Below, piece by piece: positions 2,336 through 38,701 of a stretch of 39,252 bases of DNA. This stretch comes from Escherichia phage EcoDS1. Location: the sequence record NC_011042.1; one strand, written 5' to 3'. Every line of letters begins with the position of its first letter. Within the stretch, counting starts at the first letter, position 1. The notes beneath the pieces are model-generated. The model was given only the letters and a program-made list of their open reading frames with translations, ran no database searches and was not told the DNA's origin. The translations under genes and the position numbers were made by a program.

Positions 2336-5017
2336 ATGAGCGTCATCTCTATTGACAAACACGACTTCTCTGATGTGTCGAACGCCATTGAGCCGTTTAA
2401 CCTGCTGGCTGACCACTACGGGCAAGATCTTGCAGTCAAACAGCTTCAGCTTGAGCATGAGGCATACACTGAAGGCGAGCGACGTTTCATCAAGAACCTT
2501 GAGCGCCAGACTGAGCGCGGGGAACTGGCAGACAATCAGGTCGCCAAGCCTCTTATGCAGACTCTGGTACCTAAGATTGCGCAAGCCGTCAGGGAGTGGC
2601 ATGAAGGTCCAGACGGGAAGCTGTCAACCTCTCGTCCTAGCGTAGCGTTCACCATGTTGAGCACTGAAGAGAAGGCCGTCAAGGATCGCTCTCTTCGTAT
2701 CTCTTGCGAGTCTGCTTCGGTCATCATACTGAAGGTCATACTCTCCAAGCTGGTCAAGCCTGAAGGGATACCGATTACACCGATGGCCTCCGCGATAGGT
2801 CGCACACTTGAGGATGAAATCCGCTTCGGGCGCATTCGTGACAAGGAGAAAGAGCACTTCAAGAAGGCGATAGCTGATAACCTGAACAAGCGAGCTGGGG
2901 CATCCTACAAGAAAGCCTACATGCAAGCGGTTGAGACATCCATGCTGGAGCAGGGTCAACTGGAAGATGCGTGGGGAACTTGGAGTCCTACAGAGGCTGT
3001 CCACGTTGGCATCAAGATGCTTGAGATTGTCATCCAGTCAACACAACTGGTCGAGCTTAAGCGGTACGGTGCTGGCAATGCAGCGGCTGACGTAGAGATG
3101 GTCCACCTGTCAGACTTCTGGGTCAAGAAGATGGCACAACGAGGATTCAGCCTAGCGGGTATCGCTCCAGTCTACCAGCCTTGCGTCGTTCCACCTAAGC
3201 CGTGGACTGGTGTAGTAGGCGGTGGGTACTGGGCCAAGGGTCGCAGACCACTACCACTGATTCGCTTAGGGTCTAAGTCTGCGGTGGCACGTTACGAAGA
3301 CGTGTACATGCCTGAAGTCTATGACGCTGTGAATATCATCCAGAATACACCTTGGAAAGTTAACAAGAAGGTGCTGGAAGTGGTGAACATGGTCGAGAAG
3401 CTGAACAACACGCCTATTGATGACATCCCTCAGATGGAACCGCTGAAGCCTGAAGACTATGCAGGTGAGACTGAAGAGGAACTCAAGGCATGGAAGAAGG
3501 CTGCTGCTGGTATCTACCGCCGAGAGAAGGCCCGGCAGTCACGTAGATTGTCACTAAGCTTTATCGTCAACCAAGCGAACAAGTTCTCTCAATTCAAGGC
3601 CATATGGTTTCCGTACAATATGGACTGGCGCGGCCGTGTCTACGCTGTTCCGATGTTCAACCCTCAAGGTAATGACATGCAGAAGGGCCTTCTGACTCTG
3701 GCAGTCGGTAAGCCTATTGGTGCCGATGGGTTTAAATGGCTGAAGGTCCACGGTGCAAACTGCGCGGGTATCGATAAAGTAACCTTCGAGGAGCGCATCA
3801 AGTGGGTGGAGGACAACCACGACAACATCATGGCTACTGCTAAGGCACCGATGGATAGCATTGAGTGGTGGGGCAAGTTAGACTCTCCGTTTTGCTTCCT
3901 TGCGTTCTGCTTCGAGTATGCTGGCGTGATGCATCACGGATTGTCTTACTCCTGCTCGCTGCCAATAGCTTTCGATGGGTCCTGCTCTGGGATTCAGCAC
4001 TTCAGCGCGATGCTTCGTGATCACATCGGTGGACATGCAGTAAACCTGACGCCTTCCGGTAAGGTCCAAGACATCTACCGCATCGTGTCTGACCGCATTG
4101 AGGAGGAGCTTAAAGTCCTGCTGGTTAACGGCACGGACAACGAGATGGTAACTCACGAGGACAAGAAAACTGGTGAGATTACCGAACGTCTCAAGCTGGG
4201 GACACGAGAGCTGGCCCGGCAGTGGCTTACTTACGGCATGTCACGTAAGGTCACTAAGCGTTCGGTCATGACTCTGGCCTACGGGTCGAAAGAGTATGGC
4301 TTCGCAGACCAAGTTTACGAGGACATCGTGATGCCAGCGATTGACTCAGGGTCTGGCGCTATGTTCACTGAACCAAGCCAAGCGTCTCGCTTCATGGCTA
4401 AGATGATTTGGGAAGCTGTGAGCGTGACCGTAGTTGCTGCGGTTGACGCGATGAAGTGGCTTCAAGGTGCTGCCAAGCTGCTGGCTGCTGAAGTGAAAGA
4501 CAAGAAGACTGGAGAAATCCTGAAGCCTTGCCTTCCGGTACACTGGGTCACACCTGATGGGTTCCCGGTCTGGCAGGAATACCGCAAGAAGGATACCACT
4601 CGTCTGAACCTGATGTTCTTAGGGTCATTCAACCTTCAACCTACGGTCAACAAAGGCACGAAGAAAGAGTTGGATAAGCACAAGCAGGAGTCGGGCATTA
4701 GCCCGAACTTCGTCCACTCACAAGATGGTAGCCACCTCCGCAAGACTGTAGTCCACACGCACCGCAAGTATGGCGTGATGTCATTCGCAGTGATTCACGA
4801 TAGCTTCGGGACCATCCCGGCTGACGCTGAGTATCTGTTCCGTGGTGTCCGTGAGACGATGGTCGAGACCTACCGCGACAACGATGTGCTGCTTGACTTC
4901 TACGAGCAGTTCGAATACCAGCTTCACGAGAGCCAGCGCGACAAGTTGCCTGAGCTTCCGAAGAAAGGTAAACTGAATATCGAAGACATCTTGTCTTCAG
5001 ACTTTGCATTCGCTTAA
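2336..5017 (+). CDS. T7-type single-subunit DNA-directed RNA polymerase (gp1)
   Basis: 893 aa; long stretches match T7 RNAP (CVVPPKPWTG, AIWFPYNMDWRGRVYAV, DSPFCFLAFCFEYAGV, LPIAFDGSCSGIQHFSAMLRD, HDSFGT, C-terminal FAFA). Confidence 0.98.
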   Translation: MSVISIDKHDFSDVSNAIEPFNLLADHYGQDLAVKQLQLEHEAYTEGERRFIKNLERQTERGELADNQVAKPLMQTLVPKIAQAVREWHEGPDGKLSTSRPSVAFTMLSTEEKAVKDRSLRISCESASVIILKVILSKLVKPEGIPITPMASAIGRTLEDEIRFGRIRDKEKEHFKKAIADNLNKRAGASYKKAYMQAVETSMLEQGQLEDAWGTWSPTEAVHVGIKMLEIVIQSTQLVELKRYGAGNAAADVEMVHLSDFWVKKMAQRGFSLAGIAPVYQPCVVPPKPWTGVVGGGYWAKGRRPLPLIRLGSKSAVARYEDVYMPEVYDAVNIIQNTPWKVNKKVLEVVNMVEKLNNTPIDDIPQMEPLKPEDYAGETEEELKAWKKAAAGIYRREKARQSRRLSLSFIVNQANKFSQFKAIWFPYNMDWRGRVYAVPMFNPQGNDMQKGLLTLAVGKPIGADGFKWLKVHGANCAGIDKVTFEERIKWVEDNHDNIMATAKAPMDSIEWWGKLDSPFCFLAFCFEYAGVMHHGLSYSCSLPIAFDGSCSGIQHFSAMLRDHIGGHAVNLTPSGKVQDIYRIVSDRIEEELKVLLVNGTDNEMVTHEDKKTGEITERLKLGTRELARQWLTYGMSRKVTKRSVMTLAYGSKEYGFADQVYEDIVMPAIDSGSGAMFTEPSQASRFMAKMIWEAVSVTVVAAVDAMKWLQGAAKLLAAEVKDKKTGEILKPCLPVHWVTPDGFPVWQEYRKKDTTRLNLMFLGSFNLQPTVNKGTKKELDKHKQESGISPNFVHSQDGSHLRKTVVHTHRKYGVMSFAVIHDSFGTIPADAEYLFRGVRETMVETYRDNDVLLDFYEQFEYQLHESQRDKLPELPKKGKLNIEDILSSDFAFA

Positions 5018-5032
5018 CAGCAGGAGAAGTAT

Positions 5033-5263
5033 ATGTCAATGAAACTTGTAGCACACAACAAGGCATTCAACGATGGGTCGGGACGTTGCCATGTAGAGCT
5101 GACTTATAAGGATTTAATCATTCTCCGAGACAGATTACAGTCGGGTGTGACTGGGTGGATTCAACCTAACGAGTACAACCTTATAGCTTCGATTGATGAA
5201 GTTCTTAACGCGTGGATGAAAGACGAGCGCACTCAGTATCCGTCATTCCCTACAATTAGATAA
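5033..5263 (+). CDS. Hypothetical early protein (76 aa)
   Basis: ORF track; GGAG RBS before ATG; no T7 counterpart at this position. Confidence 0.55.
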   Translation: MSMKLVAHNKAFNDGSGRCHVELTYKDLIILRDRLQSGVTGWIQPNEYNLIASIDEVLNAWMKDERTQYPSFPTIR

Positions 5264-5273
5264 GGAGAGAGTT

Positions 5274-5489
5274 ATGAAATTTGCACACAAGCAGACAGGC
5301 GTTAATGGTGGGACTCAAATCGTGACCGTAACAGAACACAACGGCAAGGGTCTGGTGAAGACCACGGTCATCCCAACCAAGATGTCCAAGCAGCTTAACA
5401 TCCAGTTCAAGACTCTTGTATATCTGGTCGAGTCCAGCCACGAGAAGTTCCTGAAGGACGCAGTGTCCAAACTGGAGCAGACCAAATGA
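5274..5489 (+). CDS. Hypothetical early protein (71 aa)
   Basis: ORF track; AGGAGAG RBS; no recognisable motif. Confidence 0.55.
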   Translation: MKFAHKQTGVNGGTQIVTVTEHNGKGLVKTTVIPTKMSKQLNIQFKTLVYLVESSHEKFLKDAVSKLEQTK

Positions 5490-5563
5490 CAGACCTGCAG
5501 TTACTGGCCCTGTGGCTGGGAGCACTTGCAGTATTCACTTTAATCCAACGCAGAAGAGGTTAA
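5486..5563 (+). CDS. Small hydrophobic peptide (25 aa)
   Basis: ATGA overlap with the upstream stop; MTDLQLLALWLGALAVFTLIQRRRG is a single TM-like helix with a basic tail. Confidence 0.35.
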   Translation: MTDLQLLALWLGALAVFTLIQRRRG

Positions 5564-5567
5564 CCCT

Positions 5568-6038
5568 ATGTTCGGTAAGTCAAAACTTAAAGCACAAATC
5601 AAAGAGTTGAGCATGAAGGTGGCATACTTGGCGCGAGAAGTAAAGGTCCTAGATAACAACAATGAGAGATTGAAGGGTAAACTTGCTGAATCAGAGCGTA
5701 AGCGCCTAACGCCACCAGCGTCCGTAACTGTCAAGCGTATGGTAGGCATCAAGTTCAAGGTACTGTTCAACGGGCTGTACCAACCGACTGAGTTCAAGAC
5801 TGGACCGGGTAACTGCGGTAAGAACGTTAAGCACTTCACTACATCGAAGACTGAACGCACCATTACCATCCACCAGCACCACATAGATGGGTCTCAGAAA
5901 GACTTCGAGTACCGACTGAGCGACATCGACGGTCGAATCCAGTATGACTATGAGCAAGTTAAAGTCTACGGAGAAGAGGCCGAACGTGAGCGAGAGCTTC
6001 AGGCATTCATGCGGGTAAGGCCGCGCATCATCTTCTAA
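5568..6038 (+). CDS. Hypothetical early protein (156 aa)
   Basis: ORF track; AGAGG RBS; N-terminal charged/coiled-coil-like region; its TAA stop lies inside the following phage promoter. Confidence 0.6.
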   Translation: MFGKSKLKAQIKELSMKVAYLAREVKVLDNNNERLKGKLAESERKRLTPPASVTVKRMVGIKFKVLFNGLYQPTEFKTGPGNCGKNVKHFTTSKTERTITIHQHHIDGSQKDFEYRLSDIDGRIQYDYEQVKVYGEEAERERELQAFMRVRPRIIF

Positions 6039-33108: not shown

Positions 33109-35412
33109 ATGTCCACGATTACACAATTCCCTTCAGGAAACACTCAGTACAGGATTGAGTTCGACTACCTAGCCAGAACGTTTGTTGTTGTTACGCTGGT
33201 GAATAGCTCTAACCCTACCCTGAACCGTGTACTGGAAGTTGGTAGAGATTACCGATTCCTTAATCCAACGATGATTGAGATGTTGGTTGACCAATCAGGT
33301 TTCGACATCGTTCGTATTCACCGTCAGACTGGAACTGGCTTAGTGGTAGACTTCAGGAATGGCTCAGTGTTGACAGCTAGTGACCTGACCAATGCAGAGC
33401 TTCAGGCTATCCATATTGCAGAAGAAGGTCGAGACCAAACTGTTGACTTAGCGAAGGAATATGCCGATGCTGCTGGTAGCTCTGCTGGCAACGCTAAGGA
33501 TAGCGAGGACGAAGCACGACGACTAGCTGCGAGTATCAAGGCAGCTGGTCTAATTGGCTATATTACCCGTCGCTCCTTCGAGGAAGGCTTCAACGTTACA
33601 ACATGGAACGAGGTCCTGCTATGGGAAGAGGATGGTGGTTATTACCGCTGGGATGGTACGCTACCTAAAGAAGTTCCTGCTGGTTCAACCCCTTCGACAA
33701 CTGGTGGCGTTGGTCTTGGTGCATGGGTGAGTGTTGGTGACGCCTCTTTGCGTTCAAATCTTATTAGTGACAATTCAATTAATGGAGATGCACTGATAGC
33801 CGTCAAGCAGCCATTTGCTAATTCCACGACAAGAACGCAGCATGATAAAAACTCGGACATCATAAATATCCGTGATTTTGGTGCTGTTGGCGACTGGGAC
33901 CCAGTCACAGACACCGGAACTGACAGCACACAAGCGCTTATTAACGCGGTTAATGCCGCCGTTGCGTTAGGAGGGGCTGAAATTGTCGTCCCTGAAGGGG
34001 TGTTCTGTACTACAAAGCCGTGGTATATACCGAGCAACATCACTGTCAGGGGTAGCGGGTATAATTCTGTAATTTACAACTATCAGGTTTCTGGTTCAGT
34101 TTTCCCGCAAACTAACTGCATTCACGTTGGGTATAGCTCCGAGTGGGGAAACAACGGCGCGCCAATGCCAACAGCCCCTGATGCAAAAATGGCTGAAATT
34201 CTGGCAAATAATTTCAGTAACATTACAGCGAGGAATTCTCGTGTAACTAATATCCGCGTAATGAATAAGGGTTTCGGTCTTGGTATTTGGTTCATGAATG
34301 CTATGGATTGCTCTTGCGACAACATATGGGCGACTAACACTACCACACCAATTAACATAGCCAATGACAACCCCACGGCGGAAATGGCGTGCAAAAATAT
34401 ATCCGTTGATAATATATTTCAAGATGACGGCACGTTAGGCGAATGGTACGACTTGGCTTTCTTAGGCTCTGCGCTGGACTGTTCTTTATCTCGTCTATAC
34501 AACAACCCGAGCACTAAAAGTAAATTGGCAGAAATGATAGCTATCAACGGCGCACGACGTTGTAAACTATCAAAACTATCCCTCTGCGGCAATGAGGACG
34601 GGACTAGCCTACAAATCGCCACCGGGGTGCTTATTTCTGGTTCATCTACAGGGAACTCTGTAACTAACTCAACATTCTCTAAGATGTCCAATGGGGTGAG
34701 TATCACCGGCACTGGCGGCAACACAGTAAAAGATTGTCGAGGAGAAAACATTTACACAACTGTCTATATAAACTCGCCGAAAAACAAAATTTCCGGATTG
34801 TCTGGTGTTGATGTTATTAATGACATTCGCGGCAACTCCGATGCAACAAGAAACGATATCACCGACTGCTCCATAAATAGCGTCAACATCTTCGATGTTA
34901 ACCCCCCAGCTATGTATAATAGATTCAGAGGTAACTGCAAAAACGATTCTATTCTTTTTAATAACTACAATAGCTATGCTGGGCTTCGTGCGAGAAAGAT
35001 AGCAATGTTCCCCGCCGACGCTGCTATGCTCGCGGCTGATAGAGAAGTAACGACAAATAACCTTGCGCACATAACCAGAAATTCTAACGGAATATTTTCG
35101 TTATATTACAAAATACCTAATAACGTTAAGCAATTAACTAAAGTTACAGTTTACGGGTATGGCGCACAATCCGGTGAAGCTGTAGACACAAGCATTGTTG
35201 GCATTGACTCCGATAACAACACAAATGGATTCCCAACATTTCAGTCACTAGGCACAAAAACTACAACTTCCACCGCCGATTTTGCTTTTGTATTCGGCCC
35301 AACTAACCCTTTTTATGCTGCGGGTAGTTATTATGTGAAAGTAACGGTGACAATAGGTAATACTGCGACACAAATAAGGAGTGTTATGCTTGAATGCCTT
35401 TGTGATGACTAA
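33109..35412 (+). CDS. Tail fibre / tailspike (gp17) with beta-helix C-terminal domain
   Basis: 767 aa; N-terminal about 150 aa match the T7 gp17 anchor (EFDYLAR.FVVVTL, DFRNGSVL.A.DL, AEEGRD); from about residue 250 the protein shows DFGAVGDW..TD.T.A.......A...GGAEIVVPEGVF and many N/I/V-rich repeats typical of right-handed beta-helix glycanases; this portion is AT-rich with distinct codon usage. Confidence 0.9.
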   Translation: MSTITQFPSGNTQYRIEFDYLARTFVVVTLVNSSNPTLNRVLEVGRDYRFLNPTMIEMLVDQSGFDIVRIHRQTGTGLVVDFRNGSVLTASDLTNAELQAIHIAEEGRDQTVDLAKEYADAAGSSAGNAKDSEDEARRLAASIKAAGLIGYITRRSFEEGFNVTTWNEVLLWEEDGGYYRWDGTLPKEVPAGSTPSTTGGVGLGAWVSVGDASLRSNLISDNSINGDALIAVKQPFANSTTRTQHDKNSDIINIRDFGAVGDWDPVTDTGTDSTQALINAVNAAVALGGAEIVVPEGVFCTTKPWYIPSNITVRGSGYNSVIYNYQVSGSVFPQTNCIHVGYSSEWGNNGAPMPTAPDAKMAEILANNFSNITARNSRVTNIRVMNKGFGLGIWFMNAMDCSCDNIWATNTTTPINIANDNPTAEMACKNISVDNIFQDDGTLGEWYDLAFLGSALDCSLSRLYNNPSTKSKLAEMIAINGARRCKLSKLSLCGNEDGTSLQIATGVLISGSSTGNSVTNSTFSKMSNGVSITGTGGNTVKDCRGENIYTTVYINSPKNKISGLSGVDVINDIRGNSDATRNDITDCSINSVNIFDVNPPAMYNRFRGNCKNDSILFNNYNSYAGLRARKIAMFPADAAMLAADREVTTNNLAHITRNSNGIFSLYYKIPNNVKQLTKVTVYGYGAQSGEAVDTSIVGIDSDNNTNGFPTFQSLGTKTTTSTADFAFVFGPTNPFYAAGSYYVKVTVTIGNTATQIRSVMLECLCDD

Positions 35413-35669: not shown

Positions 35670-35929
35670 CGCAGATGGACTTAGAGAAGTTCCTCTTAAT
35701 GCTAGATACTGAACGTGCTCGACTCATGCTGCAAGACCTGCGGGATGACTCTAAGCGTTCACCTCAGCTTTACAACGCCATTGAGAAGCTACTGGCTCGT
35801 CACAACTTCGTGCTAAGCAAGGTGTCTGTTGACGAGAAGACGCTCGCTGATATGGAGGCCCTGAACGCAGAGTACGATAAGGTGCTCTCCGCTACGGAAG
35901 ATAATGACACTGGATATGGAGTGCAGTAA
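35666..35929 (+). CDS. Terminase small subunit (gp18)
   Basis: 87 aa; RSPQLYNAIEKLLARH matches T7 gp18; ATGA coupling to the holin gene. Confidence 0.9.
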   Translation: MTQMDLEKFLLMLDTERARLMLQDLRDDSKRSPQLYNAIEKLLARHNFVLSKVSVDEKTLADMEALNAEYDKVLSATEDNDTGYGVQ

Positions 35930-35949
35930 ATCTCTTAAGTGTTAGACTC

Positions 35950-35976
35950 AAGGTCATTACTGTATGTAGTGGCCTT
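35950..35976 (+). other. RNase III-type processing hairpin (R18.5-like)
   Basis: AAGGUCAUUAC/GUAGUGGCCUU 11-bp stem with G-U pairs, 5-nt loop; third paralogue. Confidence 0.5.
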
Positions 35977-36039
35977 TATGGTTAACACTAACTAGTGGAG
36001 GAGACTCTACGTGAAATCTGATAAACCGGGAGGGCACCC

Positions 36040-36486
36040 ATGCTCGAATTTTTAAAGAGAGCGGCTCCGTGGTTACTCGCAGCAGTGATGTTTGCTGGGG
36101 GCTACCACACCGCTAACAATAAGTGGGAGGCTAAGATCAATGCAGAATACACCTCGAATCTTAAGGCATCGGAGGATACAAGGCTTGCTGTCCAAGCTGA
36201 AGTCAACAAAGTGTCCAAACGGTTTCAGGACGAAATGTCATCGCTGGAAGGTAGCACTGATAGGATTATTGCTGACCTTCAGTCTGACAATAAGCGGCTG
36301 CGCATCCGAGTCAAAACTACGAGTGGAACCACGCAAAGTGACGGTCGATGCGTCATTGATGGTTACGCCGAACTTGACGAACGAGATGCTAAACGTCTTA
36401 TCGCCATCGGAGTGAAAGGAGACAAATGGATTAAGGCACTTCAGGACACTGTGAGAGCCTTACAGCAAGATAAGGAGACCCCATGA
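36040..36486 (+). CDS. i-spanin (Rz-like, gp18.5)
   Basis: 148 aa; N-terminal TM helix (WLLAAVMFAGGY) followed by charged coiled-coil-like periplasmic region; position as T7 gene 18.5. Confidence 0.85.
   Translation: MLEFLKRAAPWLLAAVMFAGGYHTANNKWEAKINAEYTSNLKASEDTRLAVQAEVNKVSKRFQDEMSSLEGSTDRIIADLQSDNKRLRIRVKTTSGTTQSDGRCVIDGYAELDERDAKRLIAIGVKGDKWIKALQDTVRALQQDKETP
36140..36415 (+). CDS. o-spanin (Rz1-like, gp18.7) embedded in the +1 frame of gp18.5
   Basis: Embedded ORF with hydrophobic stretch VALIGLLLTFSLTISGC and lipobox-like ISGC (Cys codon 36299..36301); start uncertain (ATG at 36140 after GGGAGG, but the pre-Cys region would be unusually long). Confidence 0.45.
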   Translation: MQNTPRILRHRRIQGLLSKLKSTKCPNGFRTKCHRWKVALIGLLLTFSLTISGCASESKLRVEPRKVTVDASLMVTPNLTNEMLNVLSPSE

Positions 36487-36644: not shown

Positions 36645-38404
36645 GTAAAGACTTAGTGGCGCGTCATGCGCTAATGACTGCACGTATGAAGGCAGACTTC
36701 GTGTTCTTCCTGTTCGTCCTGTGGAAAGCTCTGTCACTCCCGGTCCCGACTCGCTGTCAGATTGACATGGCGAAGAAACTATCGGCTGGGGACAACAGGC
36801 GCTTCATCCTACAGGCGTTCCGTGGTATAGGGAAGTCCTTCATTACGTGTGCCTTCGTTGTCTGGAAGTTATGGAACAACCCAGACTTGAAGTTCATGAT
36901 TGTGTCGGCCTCAAAGGAACGAGCCGATGCTAACTCCATCTTCATCAAGAGAATCATCGACCTCATGCCTCAGCTTCAGGAACTCAAACCTAAGCAGGGG
37001 CAGCGAGATGCGGTTATCAGCTTCGACGTTGGACCGGCCAAGCCAGACCACTCACCTTCGGTTAAGTCCGTTGGTATCACTGGTCAGTTGACTGGTAGTC
37101 GTGCTGACATCCTGATTGCCGATGACGTGGAGGTTCCTAACAACTCAGCGACTCAGGCTGCACGAGACCGTCTGTCAGAGCTTGTGAAAGAGTTCGACGC
37201 TATCCTGAAGCCGGGAGGTACAATCATCTATCTGGGTACTCCTCAGAACGAGATGACCTTGTATCGTGAGCTGGAAGGCCGTGGATACACCACTACTATC
37301 TGGCCTGCTCGTTATCCACGTGATAAGAAGGACTGGCAGTCTTACGGCGACCGTCTGGCACCGATGCTTCAGGCAGAGCTGGAAGAGGACCCTGAGTCCT
37401 TCTACTGGCGTCCGACTGATGAAGTACGCTTCGATGATACGGACCTGAAGGAACGCGAGTTGTCATATGGTAAAGCTGGCTTCGCTCTACAGTTCATGCT
37501 TAACCCGAACCTGAGTGATGCAGAGAAGTACCCTCTGAAGCTCCGTGACCTTATCGTAGCAGACTTGGACCCATCGTCCAGCCCAATGGTCTACCAATGG
37601 TTGCCTAACCCTCAGAACAAGCGTGAGGACGTTCCTAACGTTGGACTCATGGGTGACTCATACCACACATATCAGACTGTAGGTTCTGCCTTCAGTTCGT
37701 ACACCCAGAAGATTCTGGTCATTGACCCCAGTGGTCGTGGTAAGGATGAAACTGGCTATGCGGTACTATACCAGCTCAACGGCTACATCTTCGCTATGGA
37801 AGTTGGTGGTATGCGTGGTGGTTATGAAGACTCTACTCTTGAAGCTCTGGCTAAGATTGGTCGTAAGTGGAAGGTCAACGAATACGTCATTGAGGGTAAC
37901 TTCGGTGATGGTATGTACCTTGAGCTATTCAAGCCTGTAGCGGCCCGTATTCATCCTGCTGCTGTAACTGAAGTGAAGAGTAAGGGTCAGAAGGAACTCC
38001 GCATCTGTGACGTTCTGGAGCCTATCATGGGGTCTCACCGACTTATCGTTAACGCTGCTGCTATCGTCCAAGATTACCAGTCGGCCTCTGATAAGGATGG
38101 TGTTCGTAACCCTATCTACTCTCTCTTCTACCAGATGACACGTATCTCTCGTGAACGTGGAGCCTTGGCACACGATGACCGACTTGATGCTCTGGCTATC
38201 GGTGTACAGTTCTTCGTTGAGTCTATGGCTAAGGATGCCAACAAAGGAGAACGTGAAGTCACTGAGGAGTGGCTGGAGGAACAGATGGAGAACCCACGGA
38301 AAGGCTTCGAGTCCATCCACACTGAGTTCTGGGACAATGGGGTACGGGTAACTCACGATACGGACGACGAGCTAGGGCTAGGGTCCTACGTTACGTTCCA
38401 CTAG
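36641..38404 (+). CDS. Terminase large subunit (gp19)
   Basis: 587 aa; [158 protein letters not shown] match T7 gp19; apparent TTG start preceded by AAGGAGGT. Confidence 0.97.
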
Positions 38405-38499
38405 CTGAATGAATAACTATGGGTGAAAGCTGCATGAATACGCAGTTAGTAACCTATAGTTACTACCAGTCCTAACCTACTGTTTTACAAGGAGTTTGG

Positions 38500-38522
38500 A
38501 CTTAACTATCACTATAGGGAAG
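38500..38522 (+). promoter_or_regulatory. Phage-RNAP promoter near the right end (phiOR-like)
   Basis: GACTTAACTATCACTATAGGGAAG; +1 G at 38517. Confidence 0.8.
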
Positions 38523-38701
38523 ACCCCCGGTTACTTATAGTATTACTGTAGTGAATATACATATGCAGACTTTATGCAAGACCTTAGGAGGCAGACTCCG
38601 AGTTCTTACCTAAGGCTTGCACCGATGGAAGGAGGTGATATTAATCATAATACCTCCAATACAGATAGTCACCGACCATAGATACAGGAGGTATGTAGCA
38701 T

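Follow-up and report, generated by a model that had tools for sequence, protein, structure and literature searches.

What kind of receptor-binding protein does Escherichia phage EcoDS1 carry, and where did the AT-rich part of its gene come from? The window that we analyzed is the whole 39,252-nucleotide (nt) sequence of record NC_011042.1, and the gene in question, gene 17, lies at 33109..35412 on the + strand, where the list of open reading frames (ORFs) gives a tailspike of 767 amino acids (aa) plus stop. Its product is exactly EcoDS1 gp17 (ACF15825.1 / YP_002003781.1; "Probable tail spike protein" in UniProt). A sequence-only reading of this gene had proposed that a beta-helix, depolymerase-like domain was recently grafted onto a T7-type anchor. 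We conclude that gp17 is very probably a modular tailspike and the sole receptor-binding protein of EcoDS1, composed of a conserved anchor and an exchangeable module that most likely binds, and probably cleaves, a polysaccharide.

In the arrangement that we propose, gp17 would be carried as six trimers, as in T7-like phages. Residues 1 to ~216, comprising a T7-type adaptor, a linker, and a Tail_spike_N domain, would plug the spike into the tail, and residues ~216 to 767, comprising a neck, a beta-helix, and a jelly-roll, would most likely bind a surface polysaccharide of particular E. coli strains. The module probably also cleaves this polysaccharide, which would give the virion access to the outer membrane, and an O-antigen seems a more likely target than a capsule. 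We assign the module to a set of AT-rich cassettes that Kayfunaviruses, P22-like temperate phages, and siphoviruses exchange by homologous recombination, both at a conserved joint, GAWVSVGDASLR, and at positions inside the module.

Anchor, joint, and module of gp17

The T7-type tail-fiber N-terminal adaptor domain spans aa 10-115 (33136..33453, + strand) and matched Pfam family PF03906 (Phage_T7_tail) at E 3.9e-15, scoring 56.3 bits against a cutoff of 25.2; N-terminal structures of T7 gp17 (7boz, 8dsp, and 8e4g) matched the same domain at E 1e-15 to 1e-17. An Ala/Gly/Asp/Glu-rich linker follows (aa 116-150; 33454..33558, +), which is likely helical and whose sole Pfam match was a sub-threshold LEA_4 hit at aa 104-132. 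The second part of the anchor is a Tail_spike_N domain (aa 155-211; 33571..33741, +; PF18668, E 5.4e-20), which the N-terminal regions of CBA120 TSP1, TSP3, and TSP4 matched at E 1e-17 to 1e-19. The earlier suggestion that the first 150 residues form a T7 anchor therefore stopped short, as the conserved anchor reaches aa ~216 and includes Tail_spike_N. Over residues 1-215, gp17 is near-identical to 9vvr_A, a Kayfunavirus-type spike of solved structure (the match as a whole covers aa 1-317 at E 1.9e-130), and this anchor structure was deposited with 18 chains, which is suggestive only for a six-trimer state. In megablast searches, the anchor DNA (gene nt 1 to ~645) was conserved at ~94% nucleotide identity in 162 phage records, and a full-length match to gene 17 was found only in phage TM1 (94.8%).

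Similarity to other Kayfunaviruses stops at the joint GAWVSVGDASLR (aa 204-215; 33718..33753, +). When we compared the gene with those of six other Kayfunaviruses in 30-nt bins, identity fell from 76-93% to 16-50% past gene nt ~645, placing the breakpoint at aa ~215, and the previously proposed start of the divergent region at 33760 was right, as conservation collapses after the joint ends at 33753. A DNA alignment revealed that the joint sequence GGTGC(A/G)TGGGT(G/T/C)AGTGTTGGTGA(C/T)GC is common to EcoDS1, TM1, two other Kayfunaviruses, and a siphovirus contig. Comparing positions rather than the motif logo, we found that the joint coincides with "motif one" of PMC10408124.

The receptor-binding module begins with a neck (aa 216-250, GDALIAVKQPF..RTQHDKN; 33754..33858, +) that is common to the Sf6 tailspike. 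In a phmmer search, aa 220-322 matched the neck and first rungs of this tailspike (2vbe/4urr) at E 1.6e-11, and the same neck was found in the P22-like and siphovirus copies of the module. The neck looks like a separately shared sub-module, since the Klebsiella Kayfunavirus SAKp10309 (3650-3760 of its record) keeps the neck motif past the joint (GDALITIKQP..ARTQHSKN) with an otherwise different beta-helix. Downstream of the neck, a right-handed parallel beta-helix is predicted at aa ~251-607 (33859..34929, +), and a C-terminal jelly-roll or beta-sandwich domain, resembling a carbohydrate-binding module, is predicted at aa 627-767 (34987..35409, +). The DFGAVGDW signature named in the sequence-only reading is present in the translation as the N-terminal cap motif DFGAVGDW...GGAEIVVPEGVF of the helix (aa 256-299; 33874..34005, +). 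The region had also been described as rich in N, I, and V, which was borne out for N (11.2% versus 4.2%) and I (7.8% versus 5.0%) but not for V (6.5% versus 6.8%); T and S are also enriched.

The predicted fold of aa 216-767 is supported by several lines of evidence. The AlphaFold model of these residues (predicted local distance difference test score, pLDDT, 89.9; predicted template modeling score, pTM, 0.84) consists of a long series of short strands at aa ~251-607, with a distinct sheet domain at the C terminus (aa ~627-767). When this model was compared to the PDB with Foldseek, the top ranks were taken by the Sf6, HK620, Det7, and CBA120 tailspikes and by Klebsiella depolymerases (E 2e-11 to 1e-8, probability 1.00). 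In a family alignment of 33 sequences drawn from two database searches, 23 of the 33 members matched PF12708 and 9 matched NosD, and the family profile matched beta-helix proteins of the PDB down to E 3.5e-22. The earlier call of a beta-helix C-terminal domain is therefore upheld on this modeling and these matches. A T7-like fiber tip, which was the other candidate for the C-terminal part, is excluded by the structure prediction and the matches to beta-helix tailspikes.

The genomic setting of gene 17 is consistent with this assignment. EcoDS1 (NC_011042) is a K1F-like Kayfunavirus whose first 24.9 kb are ~93% identical to many Kayfunaviruses of E. coli, Klebsiella, Hafnia, and Providencia. 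In the ORF list, a gp16-like internal virion protein gene precedes gene 17 and holin and terminase genes follow it, and this synteny, with gene 17 in the position of T7-type gp17, agrees with that of annotated TM1 and six other Kayfunaviruses. Given the T7-like gene order, and given that no second spike ORF was seen among the EcoDS1 ORFs, we take gp17 to be the sole receptor-binding protein of this phage.

One annotation touching the anchor deserves separate mention. The tailspike gene of Escherichia virus LS3 (3001-5634 of its record) is annotated, probably in error, as a "peptidoglycan lytic exotransglycosylase," and its translation diverges in a frameshift-like manner from that of Salmonella phage ST0223 directly past the anchor.

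Carriers, target, and exchange of the module

Within the phage collection, TM1 is the only phage besides EcoDS1 to carry the module, and a database search found homologues, at 81-87% aa identity, riding other anchors. One of these is on a P22-type Head_binding anchor with Arc and integrase genes as neighbors, beside yfdC-mlaA-fadL; because this flank is 100% identical to E. coli chromosomes, we assign this copy to a P22/Sf6-like prophage at argW. This protein is present in at least 10 NCBI E. coli entries; the prophage-bearing entries are draft genomes, whose O-antigen loci lie beyond the 10-kb flanks available for them. Accessions for P22-type copies in E. coli include WP_225381645.1, HAH7723206.1, EPF6089559.1, MDF8859954.1, EOK2688410.1, and HFT0902092.1. 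A second homologue lies on a siphovirus-type anchor in a 47-kb siphovirus-like contig. A further copy, above this range of identity, lies in a second P22-like phage (contig L015; gp16, Arc, Ant, and integrase neighbors) and is 93.0% identical in nucleotide sequence over the domain. Remote homologues at 37-48% identity were found in a siphovirus-like contig with a family-A DNA polymerase and in a contig with SU10-type adaptor proteins. The anchor of gp17 follows phage taxonomy and its C-terminal module crosses genera, as expected of a modular tailspike. Modular horizontal exchange of receptor-binding proteins among Kayfuna-, Lederberg-, Kaguna-, and Kutterviruses has been described by Pas et al. 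2023 (PMC10408124).

What might the module recognize? EcoDS1 gp17 shares its genome position, its N-terminal 215 aa, and its design of an anchor with a swappable domain with the other Kayfunavirus tailspikes (the K1F gp17 archetype and 9vvr_A), and the K1F spike is capsule specific (PMC10408124). In addition, the structural neighbors of the module include K5 lyase and Klebsiella capsule depolymerases, and few E. coli genomes appear to carry the module. These points would fit a capsule depolymerase, with a capsular (K) polysaccharide and not an O-antigen as its receptor, a reading that we consider unlikely, although it survives better than the other alternatives discussed below. The EcoDS1 module has no relationship to the K1F endosialidase: Pfam gave no match to End_N_terminal, beta-propeller, or Peptidase_S74 on the query, and these families were seen only in a few remote family members. 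The Klebsiella capsule depolymerases (KP32gp38 and 9qrm), which act on a capsule substrate in another host genus, share 10-15% identity with the module, with no sequence-level homology detected. By contrast, among sequence relatives of known structure the closest is the Sf6 spike, which is O-antigen specific, and the module rides P22/Sf6-type prophages, which mostly target O-antigens according to the survey in PMC10408124.

We next consider when the module was acquired. Over a central block of 957 nt (aa 322-640; 34072..35028, +), identity to the tailspike of the P22-like contig L015 is 98.0% (19 mismatches/957 nt), compared to 90.6% to TM1 and 92.3% to a second sibling Kayfunavirus (L016). 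In addition, ~270 nt of the beta-helix (aa 363-452) are 99-100% identical in TM1, the argW P22-like prophage, and the siphovirus contig, and EcoDS1 is at 95-96% relative to these three copies over the same residues. Given the identity of the 957-nt block to L015 rather than to the siblings, and given the match of the TM1 center to the prophage and siphovirus copies, recent recombination with a temperate-phage pool is supported.

Could the module instead have been inherited vertically for a long time in the EcoDS1/TM1 lineage, with its AT-richness a standing property of tailspike domains rather than the mark of a recent import? EcoDS1 and TM1 share 94.5% identity in gp16 and 99.2% in the anchor; the domain is at 92.9% and the region downstream at 93-96%, and on average the domain is at least as old as the divergence of these phages. 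The domain difference of 7.1% is near the 4-7% of the flanking backbone genes, and the module ends (aa 228-317 and 633-767) are nearest to sibling Kayfunaviruses, at 96-98% in most bins. Other Kayfunaviruses also have AT-rich C-terminal domains, with five of six sampled at a GC content of 0.418-0.457 and one at 0.498, and the low third-position GC of the anchor (given below) points the same way. The identities of the central block and of the TM1 center to other phages nevertheless argue that exchange of at least some segments of the module postdates the separation of the Kayfunavirus lineages, and we therefore regard purely vertical descent as somewhat less likely still than a capsule target.

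The proposal of a recent acquisition from a lower-GC donor is thus supported, with qualifications. The 98.0% block speaks for recent exchange, and the backbones of the other carriers, at a GC of ~0.45, which we associate with the temperate-phage pool, are lower in GC than that of EcoDS1. In every carrier, the domain (GC 0.36-0.47) lies below its own backbone (0.42-0.55). However, all of the sampled carrier backbones have a higher GC than the EcoDS1 domain, so the composition of the module is not explained by any of these carriers. We also considered amelioration, that is, a slow shift toward the 50% GC backbone. When TM1, a single prophage, and a single siphovirus served as references, an initial set of 70 "derived" EcoDS1 changes was AT>GC biased (39 versus 19, p = 0.012). 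This idea was dropped once L015 was added, as most "derived" states were then shared, and the 11 sites unique to EcoDS1 (8 AT>GC, 2 GC>AT) showed no significant bias.

Candidate active site and comparison to known spikes

Counting a column as conserved when it was at least 80% or nearly invariant in the 33-sequence alignment, we found that the best-conserved polar residues of the family are E345 (HIGYxxE), N419-D420 (AND), and W446-Y447-D448 (WYDL). These conserved columns define a candidate active-site span at aa 345-448 (34141..34452, +), bounded by E345 and D448 and containing D420, and we propose these three acidic residues as candidates for a catalytic groove. A module that only binds its receptor, whether glycan or protein, without cleaving it, appears improbable: near-invariant acidic and aromatic residues on consecutive rungs, as formed by these motifs, are typical of an active-site groove, and the nearest phage structural matches (Sf6, HK620, Det7, CBA120, and the Klebsiella depolymerases) are enzymes.

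The module differs from these relatives. The Sf6 tailspike, an endorhamnosidase, has a homologous neck and homologous first rungs (aa 220-322), whereas the conserved acidic residues of the EcoDS1 family lie elsewhere. Outside aa 220-322, other stretches gave E > 1000, and identity in the structural alignment was 15-16%, so that gp17 does not group with the Sf6-type endorhamnosidases. We attempted to map the Sf6 catalytic residues with HMMER, yet the alignments of the beta-helix body were non-significant and we claim no equivalence. Across the P22-family spikes (Sf6, HK620, P22, and Det7), the overall fold is alike and the same module is found on P22/Sf6-type head-binding anchors in argW prophages, although the helix body is only ~15% identical (TM-score ~0.4) and these spikes use a head-binding anchor where EcoDS1 uses a T7-type one. 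The Kuttervirus CBA120 spikes TSP1, TSP3, and TSP4 share Tail_spike_N (EcoDS1 aa 151-225, E ~1e-19) and the beta-helix fold with gp17, but they belong to a branched four-spike complex on a myovirus, while EcoDS1 has a single spike with a T7-type adaptor.

Several observations weigh against reading gp17 as a beta-helix tailspike that acts on a polysaccharide. The structure of aa 216-767 was predicted as a monomer, and the TM-scores of its Foldseek matches were only ~0.4. Pfam returned no family at E <= 1 for these residues (PF12708 and PF13229 included), so membership in the beta-helix family is transitive, resting on the PF12708 matches of the homologues and on the family profile. Sequence similarity to any solved tailspike is confined to the neck and first rungs, and E345, D420, and D448 do not align with the known Sf6 site. 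No DNA match to the domain was returned by blastn from 5,426 complete E. coli genomes, and Table S1 of PMC10408124 lists EcoDS1_RBP (YP_002003781.1) as subtype X24, a singleton with no serogroup.

The literature that we searched contained no report of depolymerase activity for EcoDS1 or TM1. Neither phage TM1 nor PDB entries 9VVR and 9LNA were the subject of any paper in it, and the papers naming EcoDS1 cite it only as a genome reference. We infer the labels "depolymerase" and "host-range determinant" for gp17 from the comparisons above. As a tentative suggestion, somewhat short of an even chance, the EcoDS1/TM1 module (X24) may represent a biochemically uncharacterized glycanase family, with an E345/D420/D448 site unlike those of Sf6, HK620, and P22 and with specificity for a rare E. 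coli O- or K-antigen.

Base composition and its meaning

The module is AT-richer than the genome, as the sequence-only reading had noted: 33760..35412 has a GC content of 0.435 compared to 0.499 for the whole window, which places it in the lowest 0.24% of all 1653-bp windows (z = -3.4). By codon position, GC in aa 216-767 is 0.426/0.451/0.428 (GC1/GC2/GC3, for first, second, and third positions), compared to 0.581/0.402/0.556 in the other 26 ORFs. Codon choice deviates as well. Per 1,000 codons, the module has 29.0 ATA (4.4 in the other genes), 50.7 AAT (8.6), 27.2 AAA (16.0), and 10.9 AAG (50.8), inverting the AAA:AAG ratio. Its mean log probability of codon given amino acid, under the genome's own usage, was at z = -6.2, below every 552-codon background window. 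The frequent ATA, AAT, and AAA codons that had been taken as a mark of the graft are real, but the shift is not confined to it: the anchor (33109-33753) has a GC3 of 0.433 versus 0.556 in other genes and a codon-usage z of -2.4. The anchors of six other Kayfunaviruses likewise have a low GC3, at 0.43-0.46.

From the amino acids of the module and the codon usage of the genome, a GC of 0.483 would be expected, compared to 0.513 for the other genes; ~38% of the GC deficit reflects amino-acid composition and ~62% reflects synonymous choice. Across the junction, GC steps from 0.493 in the anchor to 0.435 in the module, against expected values of 0.532 and 0.483, and because the anchor too has a low GC3, the visible step is mostly a GC1, or amino-acid, effect. 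Even so, that low GC is a mere by-product of an Asn/Ile/Ser/Thr-rich beta-helix and uninformative on foreign origin is the least likely of the alternatives: the lowered expectation, the drop in GC1, and the largely explained step at the junction make composition a partial contributor, but as the sole cause it is contradicted by an observed GC another 0.048 under expectation, by the synonymous codon choice, and by the 98% nucleotide sharing with a P22-like phage.

Three further observations concern the surroundings of gene 17. At 38400-38699, directly past the large terminase gene and close to the right genome end, GC reaches another local minimum (0.407 in a 300-bp window). In TM1, a homing endonuclease gene is annotated (4384-4785 of its record) in the interval between the small terminase and Rz genes, where the EcoDS1 counterpart (35929-36040) is a gap of ~110 nt. 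A scan for promoters and terminators around gene 17 returned nothing exceeding shuffled expectation.

The design of gp17 is that of an ordinary, already catalogued modular tailspike, and the phenomenon is a known one: it is a textbook case of tailed phages altering host range through replacement of the receptor-binding cassette that follows a conserved anchor, and it adds little in principle. The GC dip of the tailspike gene is partly a matter of amino-acid composition and is common to such domains, and alone it neither dates nor sources a transfer. The exchange partners, on the other hand, are new for subtype X24, for which the published survey gave none; they are P22-like E. coli prophages (e.g., WP_225381645.1) and a siphovirus contig. 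The host serotypes of these partners could now be used to predict the serogroup that X24 targets, which may be of use in phage typing and spike engineering.

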